A DNA stretch of 11,813 bases from a virus (lineage: Duplodnaviria > Heunggongvirae > Uroviricota > Caudoviricetes). The notes under the pieces are model-generated. The model had not been told where the DNA came from. It saw only the letters and a list, made by a program, of their open reading frames with translations, and ran no database searches. The position numbers and the translations under genes are program-made. Shown here in pieces: positions 1,257 through 7,599 of this stretch. Every line of letters starts with the position of its first letter. The stretch's first letter is position 1. Location of the stretch: the IMG/VR virus record IMGVR_UViG_2869947659_000003, positions 1-11,813 of that record, one strand, 5' to 3'.

Positions 1257-1538
1257 TTACCGCCGTAACCGCTCCGGCTTCTTCCAGTGGTACGTAATTT
1301 TTGCTTTTTCCCTGTACGTCTGCACGCGGCGACGGTAGGCCAGCATTTCAAGAACGCGGATCCGTATGTCGCGCATATCAACATCATTAAGCTGGATACC
1401 ATCACGGCGCATCACCTCAGCAACAACACGCACATAATTTTCAGCGGTCACGCTGTCCGGCTGTGTGGCCTGTTCGTCATGCTGCTGGCTGATTCCGGTA
1501 ACGCGGCGGATTAATCCCAGTAGTTCGGCTTCTGTCAT
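1257..1538 (-). CDS. Hypothetical protein, 93 aa
   Basis: ORF with a G-rich Shine-Dalgarno (GGGGG, 4 nt before the ATG). No recognisable family. Stop codon lies 36 bp from the IS end, so the gene appears intact. Confidence 0.55.
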   Translation of the reverse strand: MTEAELLGLIRRVTGISQQHDEQATQPDSVTAENYVRVVAEVMRRDGIQLNDVDMRDIRIRVLEMLAYRRRVQTYREKAKITYHWKKPERLRR

Positions 1539-1564: not shown

Positions 1565-1640
1565 GTGTCGTCGGGTCCTTCCTGGAATTATGGCCCGTTA
1601 CGGGGCGGCGACCTCGCGGTTTTTCGCTATTTATGAGCTT
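1565..1640 (+). other. Lambda-type cos site, copy 1 (cosQ-like ACGGGTCC-type segment plus cosN; 12-nt cohesive-end sequence GGGCGGCGACCT at 1603..1614)
   Basis: Sequence CGGGTCCTTCCTGG...GTTACGGGGCGGCGACCTCGCGGTTTTTCGCTATTTATGAGC closely matches the lambda genome termini as I recall them (right end ...ACGGGTCCTTTCCGG...GTTACG, left end GGGCGGCGACCTCGCGGGTTTTCGCTATTTATGAAAA). Confidence 0.8.
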
Positions 1641-1649
1641 TTTTAGAGG

Positions 1650-1800
1650 GAGGTTGTTGTTTAATTGTTTGTCATATCCATTTGATAACTAAGTAAAAAT
1701 AAAGAGCAATACAACAACCTGATAGTGTTTTTTTGATGCTAAAAATAAAAAAATGCTAATTGAATCAAATAGTTTTAAAAAAATACGTGGTTGTTGTATT
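1650..1800. repeat. AT-rich region with three GTTGTTGT / ACAACAAC repeats on the cosB side of cos copy 1
   Basis: GGTTGTTGTTT at about 1652, ACAACAACC at about 1710 and GGTTGTTGTAT at about 1790, seen directly. Possible terminase-small-subunit or IHF-type binding elements. Confidence 0.35.
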
Positions 1801-1831
1801 GCGTATTTGATGGCGTAACAGAAAGTGATTT

Positions 1832-2272
1832 TTAACTTTGCTGTTCTGTAACGACTGATTGTTCCATGCTGGCACGGCAAACGCTTACGGCATGACGCCA
1901 CCCAGCCAGAAAGCCGGCCATTTTATTTCGCGCTTTGCTCACTTCTTCCGGTGAGTAGCCGTAAATCTGTAAACCTTCATCAAATCTATGTTCTGTTTCT
2001 TCACTGGAGTACTCGTCACGCTCAGATGAAAGCAGCCTGGCAACCATAATTTTTTCCAGCGCACTGGTTTCTACGTGATATCCAATGGCCTCAAGATGGC
2101 TTTTACCTGAAGACCAAAGCAATGTATGCCCGATGTGATAACCGCCGGACTTTCCGCGATCCGCATTAAGATACGGCATCCCTTGTTTGGTCCATGCGCG
2201 AATAGTGGTTCTGTTTACCTTGAAATGTTCAGCTATTTCCTGCTGACTTACAAAACAAGCCTTATTAATCAT
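1832..2272 (-). CDS. Nu1-like terminase small subunit homologue (N-terminal winged-helix cos-binding domain); candidate packaging-redirection protein
   Basis: N-terminus VSQQEIAEHFKVNRTTIRAWTKQGMPYLNADRGKSGG aligns with lambda Nu1 VNKKQLADIFGASIRTIQNWQEQGMPVLRGGGKG. Only 146 aa versus 181 aa for Nu1, with a divergent C-terminus. RBS GAGGT precedes the ATG; the gene sits about 90 bp downstream of cos copy 2, as in lambda. Confidence 0.8.
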   Translation of the reverse strand: MINKACFVSQQEIAEHFKVNRTTIRAWTKQGMPYLNADRGKSGGYHIGHTLLWSSGKSHLEAIGYHVETSALEKIMVARLLSSERDEYSSEETEHRFDEGLQIYGYSPEEVSKARNKMAGFLAGWRHAVSVCRASMEQSVVTEQQS

Positions 2273-2339
2273 AATGTTACCTCAATTGACTGATTAAATG
2301 TTAATCAAGTGGTGGTGGTGTCACCTTCACGGAAAAACG

Positions 2340-2400
2340 TCATAAATAGCGAAAACCCGCGAGGTCGCCGCCCCGTAACGGCTCCATATGCCGGAAAGGA
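2340..2400 (-). other. Lambda-type cos site, copy 2 (cosQ-cosN; cohesive-end sequence reverse-complemented at 2362..2373), correctly oriented for the Nu1-like gene
   Basis: Minus strand reads ACGGGTCCTTTCCGGCATATGGAGCCGTTACG GGGCGGCGACCT CGCGGGTTTTCGCTATTTATGACG, near-identical to lambda cosQ/cosN. Confidence 0.85.
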
Positions 2401-2405
2401 CCCGT

Positions 2406-2861: not shown

Positions 2862-3197
2862 TTATCGGGCCAGCGGCTGAACGGATACGCCGGAACCCGC
2901 AAAGGCGGCGCATTTTTTCGCATCGGTGTCGACGCTCTCAGGCCAGTTAACGGCGGCAATATTGAATATCCCCGTCTTGTAACACTGTGCTGATTTCTGC
3001 TTTGACGTGTCCACAGGGTACGAGGTCAGATAAACAGCCTTGCCAGATTCCTTACCATCCCACGGCTTAAACTCGCCATTGTCCGCCAGCATCAGCGGGG
3101 TAAATTCCTGAATAACGCCAGCATCAGCGGCAAAATGTACCAGCGTCGTGGCGACCTGCTGACTGCCTGCAAATAACTCAATGTATGGAGTGTCCAT
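2862..3197 (-). CDS. Lambda gpD-like head decoration protein homologue
   Basis: TPLMLADNGEFKPWDG...YKTGIFNIAAVNWPESVDTDAKKCAAFAGSGVSV aligns with lambda gpD TPLMLDTSSRKLVAWDG...[35 protein letters not shown] (from memory). GGGGGA Shine-Dalgarno. Confidence 0.75.
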   Translation of the reverse strand: MDTPYIELFAGSQQVATTLVHFAADAGVIQEFTPLMLADNGEFKPWDGKESGKAVYLTSYPVDTSKQKSAQCYKTGIFNIAAVNWPESVDTDAKKCAAFAGSGVSVQPLAR

Positions 3198-3208: not shown

Positions 3209-4264
3209 TTAACCAATTTTGACGGTAACAAATTTGCGAATATCTGCCGGAACCGGCTGCGGTGCGCTGTGCGTCTGCACGTACTCAATCGCCGGATCGC
3301 CGTCCTCAATCCAGTTTTTCGGGTAAAACATGTTTTGCGTTGCGCCTGTTCTTACTGCGTCCTGATCCATAATCGCACCATAGGCCACCAGCCCTTTATT
3401 GTTGGTGTTGCCCAGAACCAGCAAATCAGGCTCAAGGAAATATTTTTCTGTGCCGTCGCTGTCAGTGTATTTGCCGGAATAGACGATAAGGGCAATATCG
3501 CCCAGATAGCCTTTAAAGCTCACCACTTCGCCCAGGTTTTTACAGGCCAGCTCTGCGGCGGACTCTGAACCACGGGAAAGATCGTACAGCTCACGGAATT
3601 TTTTAAAGCTGCGTAACGTTCGCCATACCTCAGCGCCCATAATCATGACGTTTGCGGGGCAACCAGCCTGATCGGCGTATAGTTCGATATCATAGATTGG
3701 ATCGTGGGTTTCTTTGTCCTGCTCTGACCATTTTTTCCCGTCGGCCTGCTCTATGATGTTTTTTTCCGGTATCTTCCAGTCGATTTCATAGCGCTCTATG
3801 CCTTCGCCCTCAATGATGTTTTTTCCGGTCGTTACCGCATTTACCGCCAGCCATTCCACGCGCGCTTTAATGGCGTTTATCTGGCGGCGCATGTTGCCAG
3901 TAATCAGGCGCATACGGCGATAGGTAGGGTCGTTAAGCTGTGCCGGATCTTCTCCAGCCATGCGCATGATGGTTTTCGTTGGATCGATTTCGTGCTTTGG
4001 CTTCATGTAGCCAGGTTTAATCGTGCTGGTTTCGTACCCTTTATCGCGCTGAACCTGGCTACCCACCATAGGCGAACAAAACGCCGACATGGTGACTTCT
4101 TCAATGTCCAGGGTATCCAGCATGATGTTTTGCGTGCTGAATGTCGCCACGTTCGGGAAAAACAGCGTGGTAAACAGCGGACTGAATTTAAATTCCGCAA
4201 TATCCCCGCGATTCAGGTACGCAAAAAGCTGGTTAGTGTTAAGTACCATTGCTTTTACTGTCAT
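3209..4264 (-). CDS. Lambda gpE-like major capsid protein homologue
   Basis: Conserved blocks along the whole 351 aa shared with lambda gpE: EFKFSPLF, KPGYMKPKHE, DPTYRRMRLI, WSEQDKETHDP, WRTLRSFK, RGSESAAE, SFKGYLGDIALIVYSGKY, LVLGNT, FYPKNWIEDGDPA, QSAP. Start codon overlaps the stop of the upstream 68-aa ORF (TAATG). Confidence 0.9.
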   Translation of the reverse strand: MTVKAMVLNTNQLFAYLNRGDIAEFKFSPLFTTLFFPNVATFSTQNIMLDTLDIEEVTMSAFCSPMVGSQVQRDKGYETSTIKPGYMKPKHEIDPTKTIMRMAGEDPAQLNDPTYRRMRLITGNMRRQINAIKARVEWLAVNAVTTGKNIIEGEGIERYEIDWKIPEKNIIEQADGKKWSEQDKETHDPIYDIELYADQAGCPANVMIMGAEVWRTLRSFKKFRELYDLSRGSESAAELACKNLGEVVSFKGYLGDIALIVYSGKYTDSDGTEKYFLEPDLLVLGNTNNKGLVAYGAIMDQDAVRTGATQNMFYPKNWIEDGDPAIEYVQTHSAPQPVPADIRKFVTVKIG

Positions 4265-5850: not shown

Positions 5851-7599
5851 TTATAAAAACGCGTCGCAATCGTCTGTTGTTATTGCGTTAGTCTGCGTTA
5901 CTCCCTTAACTTTCCGCGTAATATATTCATGTCCGTAAACTTTCGCGGCTGGCTTCATAGCCTTGCCAAAGTCATTTACGTTTAGCGGTTTGCTCCTGCC
6001 TGCGTATGCCATAAACGCCAGATAGACGCGGTAAAGGCTGTTTCTGGTCGTGTACTTCACTGAATCGCCACCGCCACCCATCATCAGGCCGCGCGCTTCC
6101 TCCAGAAAATTCAGGAACTGGCAAAACTCAATAACCGGATCCGTCTGTTGCTTTATTGCCAGAGCTTCATCACCGTCACGCTGTTCCAGTAGTAAAGCCC
6201 GTGCCTTCTCAGGGTCGGTAAAGTTCGCCAGCAAGCGGCGGATAATGACAGGGATTTCAGCCGCGATCTTTTCCGGTAGCTCCCTGTCTTTTTCTGCCTC
6301 GCTTACGATATTGTCGAAGCGGAAAATAACCCGACGACGTGACACGCCTCCGGCCCGTTCGGTGAATATCATCGGGTTGTTATTGGTCGCCAGCACCACC
6401 GCCCTGATTACCGTAGTGAAACGCTTTTCATATTTCGGGTTGATTTCCACGGGGTCGCCGCCCGTGATTTTCTTGATGCCCGTGCCTTCGCCTGTATATT
6501 TCGGCTGGTCTGCCAGGACGATAAGACGACTCCCGACAACCTGCGCACGCCCACCAGCATCATCAAGCGATGTCATTTCCGCGCTTACCGTGTTTTGTTT
6601 CCCCGCTAAAAGGCTGGCGATGTGGGTGAATGTACTTTTGCCGCTCCCGCCGTCTCCGGTGGCCTCAATAAACATCTGCCAGTCGTACCGGTTCGCCATA
6701 ATCATGTACAGCGCGGCACATATACGCATCATCTTGCGCTGGTCTTTTCCAGCTGCGTGATCAAGCCATTTATGAAAGTTTGGCGCGTTATCGCGGATGT
6801 TCTCCCCAGGTGCTGGTGGCGTGTACTCAATGCCGTTGTGCGTGGTGATCCAGTTCTCCGGCGTGTGCGGGGAAAATTCCCCCGTTTTCAGGTCAAGCGC
6901 ACCATTGGCGAACGGCAGCAAATCGCCGGACGGCTCCCCCATTGGTTCGGCAATAACTTTTAACGCTTCAACGGCGTTATTGATCACGCGTTTGCTGAAA
7001 GTGGCCCTGTGCTCTGAATAGATCGCCACCATTTCGCGGCTCAGCTCCATTGTGCTGATCGGACACCATACCCCGCCGCGCCATACGTGAACGATTTCAC
7101 TTTCCGGATGCACACAAACGCCATCAAAGCGCTCGGCAAGCAGCTGCGCGCGCTCACTGTCTGCCATTTGTGCCAGTTGCGTATTTTTCTGCTCCGGCAT
7201 GGTAAGCCCTGCGGCAATATTTTCACGCTCAGCATTCAGATAGCGCCGCCAGTTTTCACACTTCTGGACGTGCATTCCTTCGGGGTAAAAATTTGCGTCC
7301 TGAATATCTGCCGCCGCCAGCTTCTGACCAATCTTTTTGGTCTCCACTAAATCCAGTTCTCCGGCCTGGTACAGCCTTACGCGCTTTTTCCCATCCGGAA
7401 CAATTTTCAGCGCATCAAGTTCGGCAAGCTGATTTGGCCCAAGCCACACAGGCGGCACATTATCGCCGGATGCGGGGCCATCCTGCTCCTGCCATTGTTT
7501 CGCGTGCGACCAGGCATCACTACCCGCGAAAATAATTACCTCTGTGTCTTTGTGTTTTATTCCGCGTGGCTGTTTTTTTACGTTCGGTGCCAGTTTCAT
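5851..7599 (-). CDS. P4-family primase/helicase (alpha-like replication protein; D5-type SF3 helicase with Walker A)
   Basis: 582-aa ORF with Walker A EATGDGGSGKST and a downstream Walker B-like LIVLAD segment; overall resemblance to the P4 alpha / phage-plasmid primase C-terminal region. Coupled by ATGA overlap to the upstream small ORF. Confidence 0.88.
   Translation of the reverse strand: MKLAPNVKKQPRGIKHKDTEVIIFAGSDAWSHAKQWQEQDGPASGDNVPPVWLGPNQLAELDALKIVPDGKKRVRLYQAGELDLVETKKIGQKLAAADIQDANFYPEGMHVQKCENWRRYLNAERENIAAGLTMPEQKNTQLAQMADSERAQLLAERFDGVCVHPESEIVHVWRGGVWCPISTMELSREMVAIYSEHRATFSKRVINNAVEALKVIAEPMGEPSGDLLPFANGALDLKTGEFSPHTPENWITTHNGIEYTPPAPGENIRDNAPNFHKWLDHAAGKDQRKMMRICAALYMIMANRYDWQMFIEATGDGGSGKSTFTHIASLLAGKQNTVSAEMTSLDDAGGRAQVVGSRLIVLADQPKYTGEGTGIKKITGGDPVEINPKYEKRFTTVIRAVVLATNNNPMIFTERAGGVSRRRVIFRFDNIVSEAEKDRELPEKIAAEIPVIIRRLLANFTDPEKARALLLEQRDGDEALAIKQQTDPVIEFCQFLNFLEEARGLMMGGGGDSVKYTTRNSLYRVYLAFMAYAGRSKPLNVNDFGKAMKPAAKVYGHEYITRKVKGVTQTNAITTDDCDAFL

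Follow-up and report, generated by a model that had tools for sequence, protein, structure and literature searches.

The island and its two cos sites

The stretch of DNA analysed here (the window, 11,813 nucleotides in full) is a satellite island (PICI) of the EcCICFT073 family that is inserted beside phoQ, at the site which the prototype island EcCICFT073 itself occupies in E. coli CFT073. Its gene content comprises an integrase, a primase, a gpE-like capsid gene, a gpD-like decoration gene, and a gene for a protein of 146 amino acids. The 146-aa protein matches RppC (PDB 6hlk) with E = 7e-32, and its gene is referred to as rpp ('redirecting phage packaging'). When aligned with RppA of EcCICFT073, the window Rpp is 94% identical, and residues 4-58, which form the DNA-binding domain, are the same in both proteins. 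The gene lies between two convergent cos sites, and the features of this region are as follows.

1572-1582, plus strand: CGGGTCCTTCC, a cosQ-like element that goes with the cosN starting at 1603
1603-1614, plus strand: cosN GGGCGGCGACCT, an exact lambda-type match, which by position is the cos2 slot of EcCICFT073 ('cos copy 1' of the earlier note on this DNA)
1832-2272, minus strand: rpp, 146 aa (the 'Nu1-like gene' of the earlier note)
2309-2326, minus strand: proposed Rpp-TerS site 'R3-PICI', AGGTGACACCACCACCAC, bp 48-65 of the other cos, identical to EcCICFT073 cos1
2362-2373, minus strand: second, convergent cosN of the published cos1 type ('copy 2' of the earlier note), with its cosQ at 2393-2405 (minus strand)

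The cos numbering of the earlier note is the reverse of that in the literature; the published names, cos1 and cos2, are used below. The CGGGTCCTTCC element aligns with the conserved cosQ that precedes cosN in EcCICFT073 cos2, in the phage loci described below, and in the other cos copy of the window; the motif form, GGGTCCTT(T)CC, is taken from Fig. S1A of PMC6739421. The two cos copies of the window have about 75 bp in common, from cosQ through cosN to ~35 bp further on, and diverge after that. The first 73 bp beyond the cohesive end of the cos at 2362-2373 agree in full with EcCICFT073 cos1, and the cosQ-cosN flank at 1603 does not differ from its EcCICFT073 cos2 counterpart until after bp 16, where the two sequences diverge. 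The cos at 1603 also lies between a conserved 93-aa ORF and the 3' end of rpp and is convergent with cos1, as is the case for EcCICFT073 cos2.

EcCICFT073 has two cos sites, and its transfer by lambda and phi80 requires cos1 (PMC6092414, PMC6739421). RppA binds the small terminase (TerS) of the helper, and exchanges of cosB have identified the cosB of cos1 as the element recognised by the RppA-TerS complex (PMC6092414, PMC6739421). In Supplementary Fig. S1A of PMC6739421, cos1 is located upstream of rppA and contains ...CCGTGAAGGTGACACCACCACCACTTGATTAA..., and the convergent cos2 contains three CATGTCCGG repeats. Murialdo and Feiss placed R3-PICI at bp 48-65 of cos1 (PMC9026076). The ACCACCACC core of this cosB is found in the window at 2311-2319 (minus strand), corresponding to bp 55-63 from its cohesive end.

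Three repeats on the cosB side of the cos2 slot

The feature under study lies in an AT-rich stretch that extends from the cosN (1603-1614) as far as the stop codon of rpp on the minus strand, with a GC content of 31.5% for the segment 1601-1800. A further minus-strand ORF is located upstream at 1257-1538, so that the repeat region sits between this ORF and rpp. The earlier note had pointed to three copies of GTTGTTGT or its complement in this segment, which was borne out both by exact coordinates and by comparative conservation. There are exactly three matches to GTTGTTGT in the 11.8-kb window, at 1653-1660 (plus), 1711-1718 (minus), and 1790-1797 (plus), all of them on the right, cosB side of the cosN. 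The core common to all copies extends to 9 nt, GGTTGTTGT, and its orientation is direct (1652-1660, plus), inverted (1711-1719, minus), and direct (1789-1797, plus). Copies 2 and 3 have 14 nt, GGTTGTTGTATTGC, in common as an inverted repeat. Together with two conserved blocks between them, the repeats make up the following arrangement.

1650-1665, plus strand: R3 site, with GAGGTTGTTGTT at 1650-1661 (bp 48-59 from the cohesive end) and the GGTTGTTGT core at bp 50-58
1675-1687, minus strand: candidate IHF site (I1 equivalent) between R3 and R2, TATCAAATGGATA, with 1 mismatch to WATCAANNNNTTR
1706-1720, minus strand: inverted R2 site, reading AGGTTGTTGTATTGC on the minus strand, 59 bp from R3
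1763-1775, plus strand: second conserved IHF-like block between R2 and R1, AATCAAATAGTTT, with 1 mismatch, conservation 0.92, and a purely conjectural role
1789-1802, plus strand: direct R1 site, GGTTGTTGTATTGC, 78 bp from R2

The statistical support for the repeats from the window alone is only moderate. About 0.49 matches to GTTGTTGT are expected in the window, and three were reached in 1 of 200 shuffles. For the 217-bp spacer, 142 of 20,000 dinucleotide-preserving shuffles (0.7%) contain some 9-mer three times or more, mostly in the form of A/T runs. It is the comparative data that decide the matter.

The overall layout is that of the complex cosB, with R3 near bp 50 and an inverted R2, which has been described for lambda, phi80, 21, Gifsy-1, and Monarch (PMC9026076, PMC4669245). 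Both the position of R3 and the presence of three R copies with R2 inverted were found in the window. The likeness to the R elements of lambda cosB, which the earlier note had proposed, is upheld by the position of the core at bp 50-58, by the direct/inverted/direct pattern, and by the sequence match to R3-N15 and the Monarch cosB presented below. The window shares with lambda the R3-R2-R1 architecture, with a candidate block in place of I1, the inverted R2, and the type of cosQ and cosN, and the R3 of lambda occupies bp 50-65. In contrast, the R sequence of lambda, CGTTTCC(T/G)TTCT, is unrelated, and R3 and R2 are separated by ~50 bp in lambda compared with 59 bp in the window. One feature of a phage cosB is missing from the island copy, as it is not followed by terS. 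The homologous prophages do have terS at this place, and the window copy is thus a cosB that has been detached from its terS.

As for the two IHF-like blocks, one-mismatch matches to the WATCAANNNNTTR consensus are not enriched over chance in the window. The block at 1675-1687 may nevertheless serve as the I1 equivalent, a role suggested by the architecture of lambda and Monarch. Across the homologs described below, a TATC...TTGATAA block in the R3-R2 interval has a conservation of 0.95, and the windows 1682-1684 are among the best-conserved.

Phage homologs and probable N15/Monarch specificity

The most direct link to a known packaging specificity is provided by R3. The sequence GAGGTTGTTGTT at window positions 1650-1661 is found in phage N15 at bp 48-59, so that sequence and position are both the same. 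At bp 48-63, the interval that the extended R3 site covers in the window, N15 has the left-end sequence GAGGTTGTTGTTTAAT. R3-N15 has been defined as bp 48-59, and mutational data are available for both halves: scrambling GAGGTT (bp 48-53) lowered the yield ~7-fold, and scrambling GTTGTT (bp 54-59) led to a ~100-fold loss (PMC4669245). Within the N15/Monarch class, the experimental support for R3 comes from N15 only. Because GAGGTTGTTGTT lies at exactly bp 48-59, we read the GGTTGTTGT repeats as the R3, R2, and R1 sites of a cosB with N15/Monarch specificity. The R3 position is that of N15, and the succession of R3, IHF-like block, inverted R2, and R1 agrees with the description of Monarch. N15 itself differs in having only R3 and a remote rR2 (PMC4669245), compared with R3, R2, and R1 in the window. 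Specificity in this class is asymmetric: N15-specific terminase packages lambda DNA, but lambda terminase does not package DNA of N15 specificity (PMC4669245).

To place the element among its relatives, the 200-bp cosB carrying the repeats was compared with 5,426 complete E. coli genomes, 299 of which contained matches. These fall into three bands of identity: 35 genomes at 95% or more, representing the island type of the window, 23 at 80-90%, and 241 at 60-80%. Two loci were fetched from the middle band (L003 and L005), both of them islands. Every locus fetched from the 60-80% band turned out to be a lambdoid prophage with the order cosQ, cosN, GGTTGTTGT-type cosB, terS, terL. The TerS proteins encoded next to this cosB belong to the Pfam family Phage_Nu1, and a scan of IMG/VR with this TerS returned 431 relatives, of which a sample of 80 loci with 49 distinct upstream regions was kept. 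In these 80 loci, the positions relative to the start of terS are about -178 for GGTTGTTGT (plus), -119 for ACAACAACC (minus), and -41 for GGTTGTTGT (plus). We equate this prophage group with the 'Monarch' type according to the published description in PMC4669245 rather than by the Monarch sequence.

To assess conservation, 44 distinct homologous cosB sequences were aligned with their strand taken into account. An exact core is present in 40 of the 44 for R3, in 43 for R2, and in 41 for R1, and all three cores rank among the best-conserved 9-column windows. The spacing is constant, with 59 bp between R3 and R2 in nearly all phage and island copies and 78 bp between R2 and R1 in most phages; both distances are the same in the window. 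An apparent mis-spacing of the window R3 by 1 bp (bp 50, compared with 51 in the L004 prophage) was dismissed, as the phages themselves vary between 14 and 16 bp from the TTTATGAG anchor. The homology between island and phages starts after cosN and stops just after R1. Past this point the phage sequence enters terS, whereas the island sequence enters the 3' end of rpp. Compared with N15 and the Monarch prophage group, the cassette of the window thus lacks terS behind it and abuts the 3' end of the convergent rpp inside a satellite island.

The TerS proteins of the prophages further define the class. A tblastn search identified N15 gp1 as the nearest named relative of the prophage TerS, with 47% identity. 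The recognition helix ISVQAFDKW is invariant in the TerS of the 80 prophage loci and identical in N15 gp1, so that the R3 match in the window is accompanied by the cognate TerS helix in its phage homologs. Among the same loci, residues 10-50 hardly vary, whereas identity drops to 70% towards the C-terminus. The window itself has no terS with the N15 helix. We also considered GGTTGTTGT as an undocumented fourth packaging specificity. This was rejected in view of the relationship to N15 gp1 and the identical R3 of N15, which has already been described together with the Monarch group.

A comparison of two phage loci reveals how cosB and TerS are coupled. The TerS proteins of PhiR12_1 and of the L004 prophage are 100% identical over their last ~75 residues, and their N-termini are unrelated. 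The cosB repeats differ alongside these N-termini, being CATGTCCGG in PhiR12_1 and GGTTGTTGT in L004. The class of cosB and the DNA-binding domain of TerS switch together.

These observations also bear on readings in which the cluster has nothing to do with packaging, namely a replication origin with iterons, a promoter or operator, a terminator that serves two convergent genes in both directions, or chance. AT-rich DNA with short direct and inverted repeats does resemble an origin or an operator, the arms at 1706-1731 and 1777-1802 could form a hairpin, and the region lies between rpp and the minus-strand ORF upstream of it. In the phages, however, the cluster keeps a constant distance to cosN and immediately precedes terS, and neither an origin nor a convergent gene exists there. 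Furthermore, a scan for promoters and terminators gave no such site within 1640-1830, and an Rfam search of the repeat region gave no match. Chance is excluded by the conservation in 44 homologs together with the R3-N15 identity. We consider a non-packaging origin of the cluster highly improbable.

Three further searches had a negative outcome. No match to the whole cosB was found among the isolate phages of the phage collection, and a text search of the literature for the GGTTGTTGT motif gave nothing relevant. A scan of the genome contig collection with the Rpp protein yielded no confirmed relatives; the comparisons were obtained from E. coli RefSeq and IMG/VR instead.

Proposed function of the repeats and of the cos2 slot

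Taken together, we consider it probable, at roughly 0.8, that the three copies of GGTTGTTGT represent R3, R2, and R1, the binding sites for TerS in a complex lambda-type cosB of N15/Monarch specificity, which occupies the cos2 slot of the island and which is predicted to provide a route for Rpp-independent packaging by helpers of this specificity. Such packaging is the most likely function of the repeats.

The earlier note had assigned them a different purpose, suggesting that they are sites for the island's own Nu1-like protein which set the satellite cos apart from that of the helper. In this reading, Rpp would bind the repeats either alone or as an Rpp-TerS heterodimer. Rpp does have a winged-helix domain of the TerS type, the repeats do occupy R-element positions beside a cos inside the island, and with helpers of the lambda, phi80, or 21 type the cosB of the window would differ from the helper's own. 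Several lines of evidence speak against it. Prophages of 241 E. coli genomes and 80 sampled IMG/VR viral contigs have the same elements in the interval from cosN to a Nu1-family terS, where they form the cosB of phages with a TerS of their own, and R3 is shared with N15. Because of this location between cosN and terS in prophages, the repeats are a signal of helper-phage type and not specific to the satellite.

The properties of Rpp point in the same direction. Its DNA-binding domain, KVNRTTIRAWTKQGMP, is unlike the N15-type TerS helix that co-occurs with GGTTGTTGT. It is the domain of RppA, yet the island of RppA, EcCICFT073, has no cosB with GTTGTTGT; despite identical domains, the slot contains CATGTCCGG in EcCICFT073 and GGTTGTTGT in the window. 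What the two islands have in common is the cos1-type cosB, to which the published swaps map the RppA-TerS complex and which is conserved in the window as the cosB of 'copy 2'. Related islands likewise retain this Rpp-type cosB while the cosB in the slot changes its class. The cos1-type site resembles the repeats in lying beside a lambda-type cosN of the same island and in having a triplet-repeat core near bp 50-63. It differs in its ACCACCACC sequence and in being a single, unrepeated site between cosN and the start codon of rpp, whereas the GGTTGTTGT repeats lie on the 3' side of the gene. Cos1-type (ACCACCACC) cosBs were not found in phages. We therefore regard recognition of the repeats by Rpp as quite unlikely.

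If the repeats are the R sites of an N15/Monarch-type cosB, packaging of the island may proceed by analogy with lambda. During growth of a helper whose TerS carries the ISVQAFDKW helix, a TerS dimer would dock on R3 and R2 across a bend that is probably made by IHF. The dimer would anchor the large terminase (TerL) on the cosN at 1603-1614, resulting in a nick, and the concatemeric island DNA would then be packaged rightwards. This route would have no need for Rpp. With helpers of other specificities, the Rpp-TerS complex would act at the other cos (2362-2373, minus strand), whose cosB contains ACCACCACC. The use of the window copy within the island, the involvement of IHF, and the independence from Rpp are predictions of this model, and capture of an N15/Monarch-type TerS by Rpp might block the Rpp-independent route.

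The repeats could also be genuine R elements of phage origin that take no part in island transfer, an inert passenger left as a scar of recombination through the shared cosQ-cosN. The breakpoints do fall in sequence shared by phages and islands, and a truncated cos is found in the slot of some related loci (L126, L163-L165). When cos2 was deleted from EcCICFT073, its transfer by lambda and phi80 was not diminished and in fact went up (PMC6092414, PMC6739421). Any benefit of the slot is for this reason putative. A matching resident prophage, and hence a matching resident helper, is also uncommon, as a second match occurs in only 3 of the 35 genomes with the island-type cosB of the window; this neither supports nor refutes the packaging hypothesis. 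Against an inert passenger, islands at three different chromosomal sites have preserved all three cores along with their spacing, namely the window (phoQ side), L003 (yejO side), and L005 (clpS side). The alternative cosN of the matching phages, L006 and L007, is present at both cos sites of L005, which suggests co-adaptation with such phages. Moreover, the cloned cos2 of EcCICFT073 supported the transfer of a plasmid in the published work with lambda and phi80, and transfer was abolished only when both cos sites were deleted (PMC6092414, PMC6739421). An inert passenger is thus unlikely in our view, and a role of the repeats in packaging by N15/Monarch-specificity helpers remains the preferred reading.

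To characterise the slot more broadly, we surveyed 80 IMG/VR loci that contain the neighbouring 93-aa ORF, 42 of which have a cos in the slot. The 42 slot cosBs belong to four types of similar frequency, all located behind the same cosQ-cosN and all with a complete layout of three repeats, which again argues against an inert passenger. The type with CATGTCCGG repeats, to which EcCICFT073 cos2 belongs and which sets it apart from the N15/Monarch class in the window, has its counterpart in the cosB of phages PhiR12_1 to PhiR12_5, with 98% identity. For the AGATCC type, the nu1-proximal region of phage SerU-LTIIb is a relative with 74% identity, and the GGTTGTTGT type has its phage-side relatives in Monarch and N15. 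The fourth type appears similar to phage 21, as judged by eye against the cosB of a CFT073 prophage. In the original EcCICFT073 papers, no phage cosB was identifiable in this island (PMC6092414, PMC6739421). The cos2 site is absent from the review by Murialdo and Feiss (PMC9026076), and we found mentions of it only in the two original papers.

These findings lead to a broader proposal, to which we give an even chance. The second cos of EcCICFT073-family islands would be a swappable cassette for helper range, such that each island combines one universal, Rpp-dependent cos with one complete phage-type cosB, which recombination in the shared cosQ-cosN has brought in from one lambdoid lineage or another. 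The class of the slot would then predict the Rpp-independent helpers of an island, and the island of the window would be tuned to helpers of N15/Monarch specificity. We found no statement of this idea in the original cos2 papers (PMC6092414, PMC6739421) or in the Feiss review (PMC9026076).

The element itself is an ordinary instance of a well-understood kind, and its setting in the cos2 slot of a PICI is modestly new. The repeats appear to copy the packaging signal of one class of helper phages rather than allowing a satellite protein to tell the satellite from the helper. The more interesting by-product of the analysis is that the cos2 slot looks like an exchangeable cassette for a helper-type cosB. 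The cosB at cos2, together with three sibling slots, looks phage-type, with identifiable phage-side relatives for three of the four, and the so far unexplained cos2 of the E. coli PICIs gains a concrete and testable meaning. If the slot sets the range of Rpp-independent helpers, the mobility of an island could be predicted from its sequence, and the slot would be natural material for studying the co-evolution of the TerS recognition helix and its R site.

cos upstream of rpp and its neighbouring genes

The window carries two convergent cos sites, and the one upstream of rpp, the gene of the 'redirecting phage packaging' protein that the earlier note had called Nu1-like, is of the cos1 type. 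Its elements are the following:

2309-2326, minus strand: proposed Rpp site AGGTGACACCACCACCAC, bp 48-65 from the cohesive end
2362-2373, minus strand: cosN
2393-2405, minus strand: cosQ

Over the 73 bp after the cohesive end, including AGGTGACACCACCACCAC, this site is identical to the published cos1 of EcCICFT073. A C-rich triplet repeat, (ACC)n, occupies bp 50-63, and the G/T-rich GGTTGTTGT core lies at the same bp of the other cos. The copies were numbered in the earlier note in the order opposite to that of the literature. A further 12-mer with one mismatch to cosN (GGGCGGCGACCC, 6452-6463, minus strand) is located inside the primase gene; neither cosQ nor cosB accompanies it, and the resemblance is most probably due to chance.

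Three neighbouring genes were annotated:

1257-1538, minus strand: conserved 93-aa ORF, transcribed away from the cos2 slot, with its start about 35 bp from the cosQ there
2862-3197, minus strand: lambda gpD-like head decoration protein (Pfam HDPD, 2.5e-17)
3209-4264, minus strand: gpE-like major capsid protein (Phage_cap_E, 2e-52)

The 93-aa ORF, which has no Pfam match, accompanies the cos2 slot in all related islands examined. Like the window island, EcCICFT073 encodes both gpD-like decoration and gpE-like capsid proteins. These genes are at odds with the description of EcCICFT073 as lacking capsid morphogenesis genes and being packaged in full-size helper capsids (Fillol-Salom 2018).

Diversity of cosB and cosN

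Among the IMG/VR loci with the 93-aa ORF (L090-L169), an identical cosQ-cosN segment in the cos2 slot of the island family is followed by one of four cosB types with three repeats each, namely 21-like (11 loci), CATGTCCGG (11), AGATCC (11) and GGTTGTTGT (9). A further 38 of these loci have no cos in the slot, and in four of the 38 a truncated cosN is fused to other sequence. The comparison of the slot also covered L009:3050-3340 and L002:3100-3290. The cos2 of EcCICFT073 shares 98% identity with the cosB of phages PhiR12_1 to PhiR12_5, and its repeats are oriented + - - rather than + - +.

Variation extends to cosN itself. Two phage loci (L006 and L007, both at about 1440-1480) and one island (L005) carry CACCGGGGGTCGGTGGACGCGC in place of the lambda-type cosN region TTACGGGGCGGCGACCTCGCGG, while retaining cosQ, the TTTATGAG block and the GGTTGTTGT cosB; in the island, the alternative is present at both cos sites (1440-1480 and 2150-2200). 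The island beside yejO (L003:1400-2100), where only a 3' remnant of rpp is left, has two convergent phage-type cos sites, one of the CATGTCCGG and one of the GGTTGTTGT type, both with a mismatched cosN (GGGCGTCGACCT).

Exchange of cosB with the TerS DNA-binding domain

The small terminase of a prophage (L004:1719-2198) and the Nu1 of phage PhiR12_1 (L170:866-1375) are 100% identical over their last ~75 residues, with unrelated N-terminal DNA-binding domains, and the cosB repeats upstream change along with these domains. The pair is a clean natural case of a combined swap of cosB and the TerS DNA-binding domain as one cassette.

An island of the O157 type (L002:3294-3970), which shares its phoQ site with the window, encodes a full-length, 180-aa Nu1-family TerS in place of Rpp. 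The DNA-binding domain of this TerS (VSATAFDKWGVTPVERKGRE) is close to that of N15/Monarch. In the cos upstream, cosN has a single mismatch (GGGCGGAGACCT) and is accompanied by a GGTGGTGGTGGTTTTGTTGTTTG tract and the inverted pair CAATACACCAACC / GGTTGGTGTATT; the repeats are therefore one base away from GGTTGTTGT. The earlier proposal, in which a Nu1-like protein encoded by the island has R sites of its own, may apply to this type of island.
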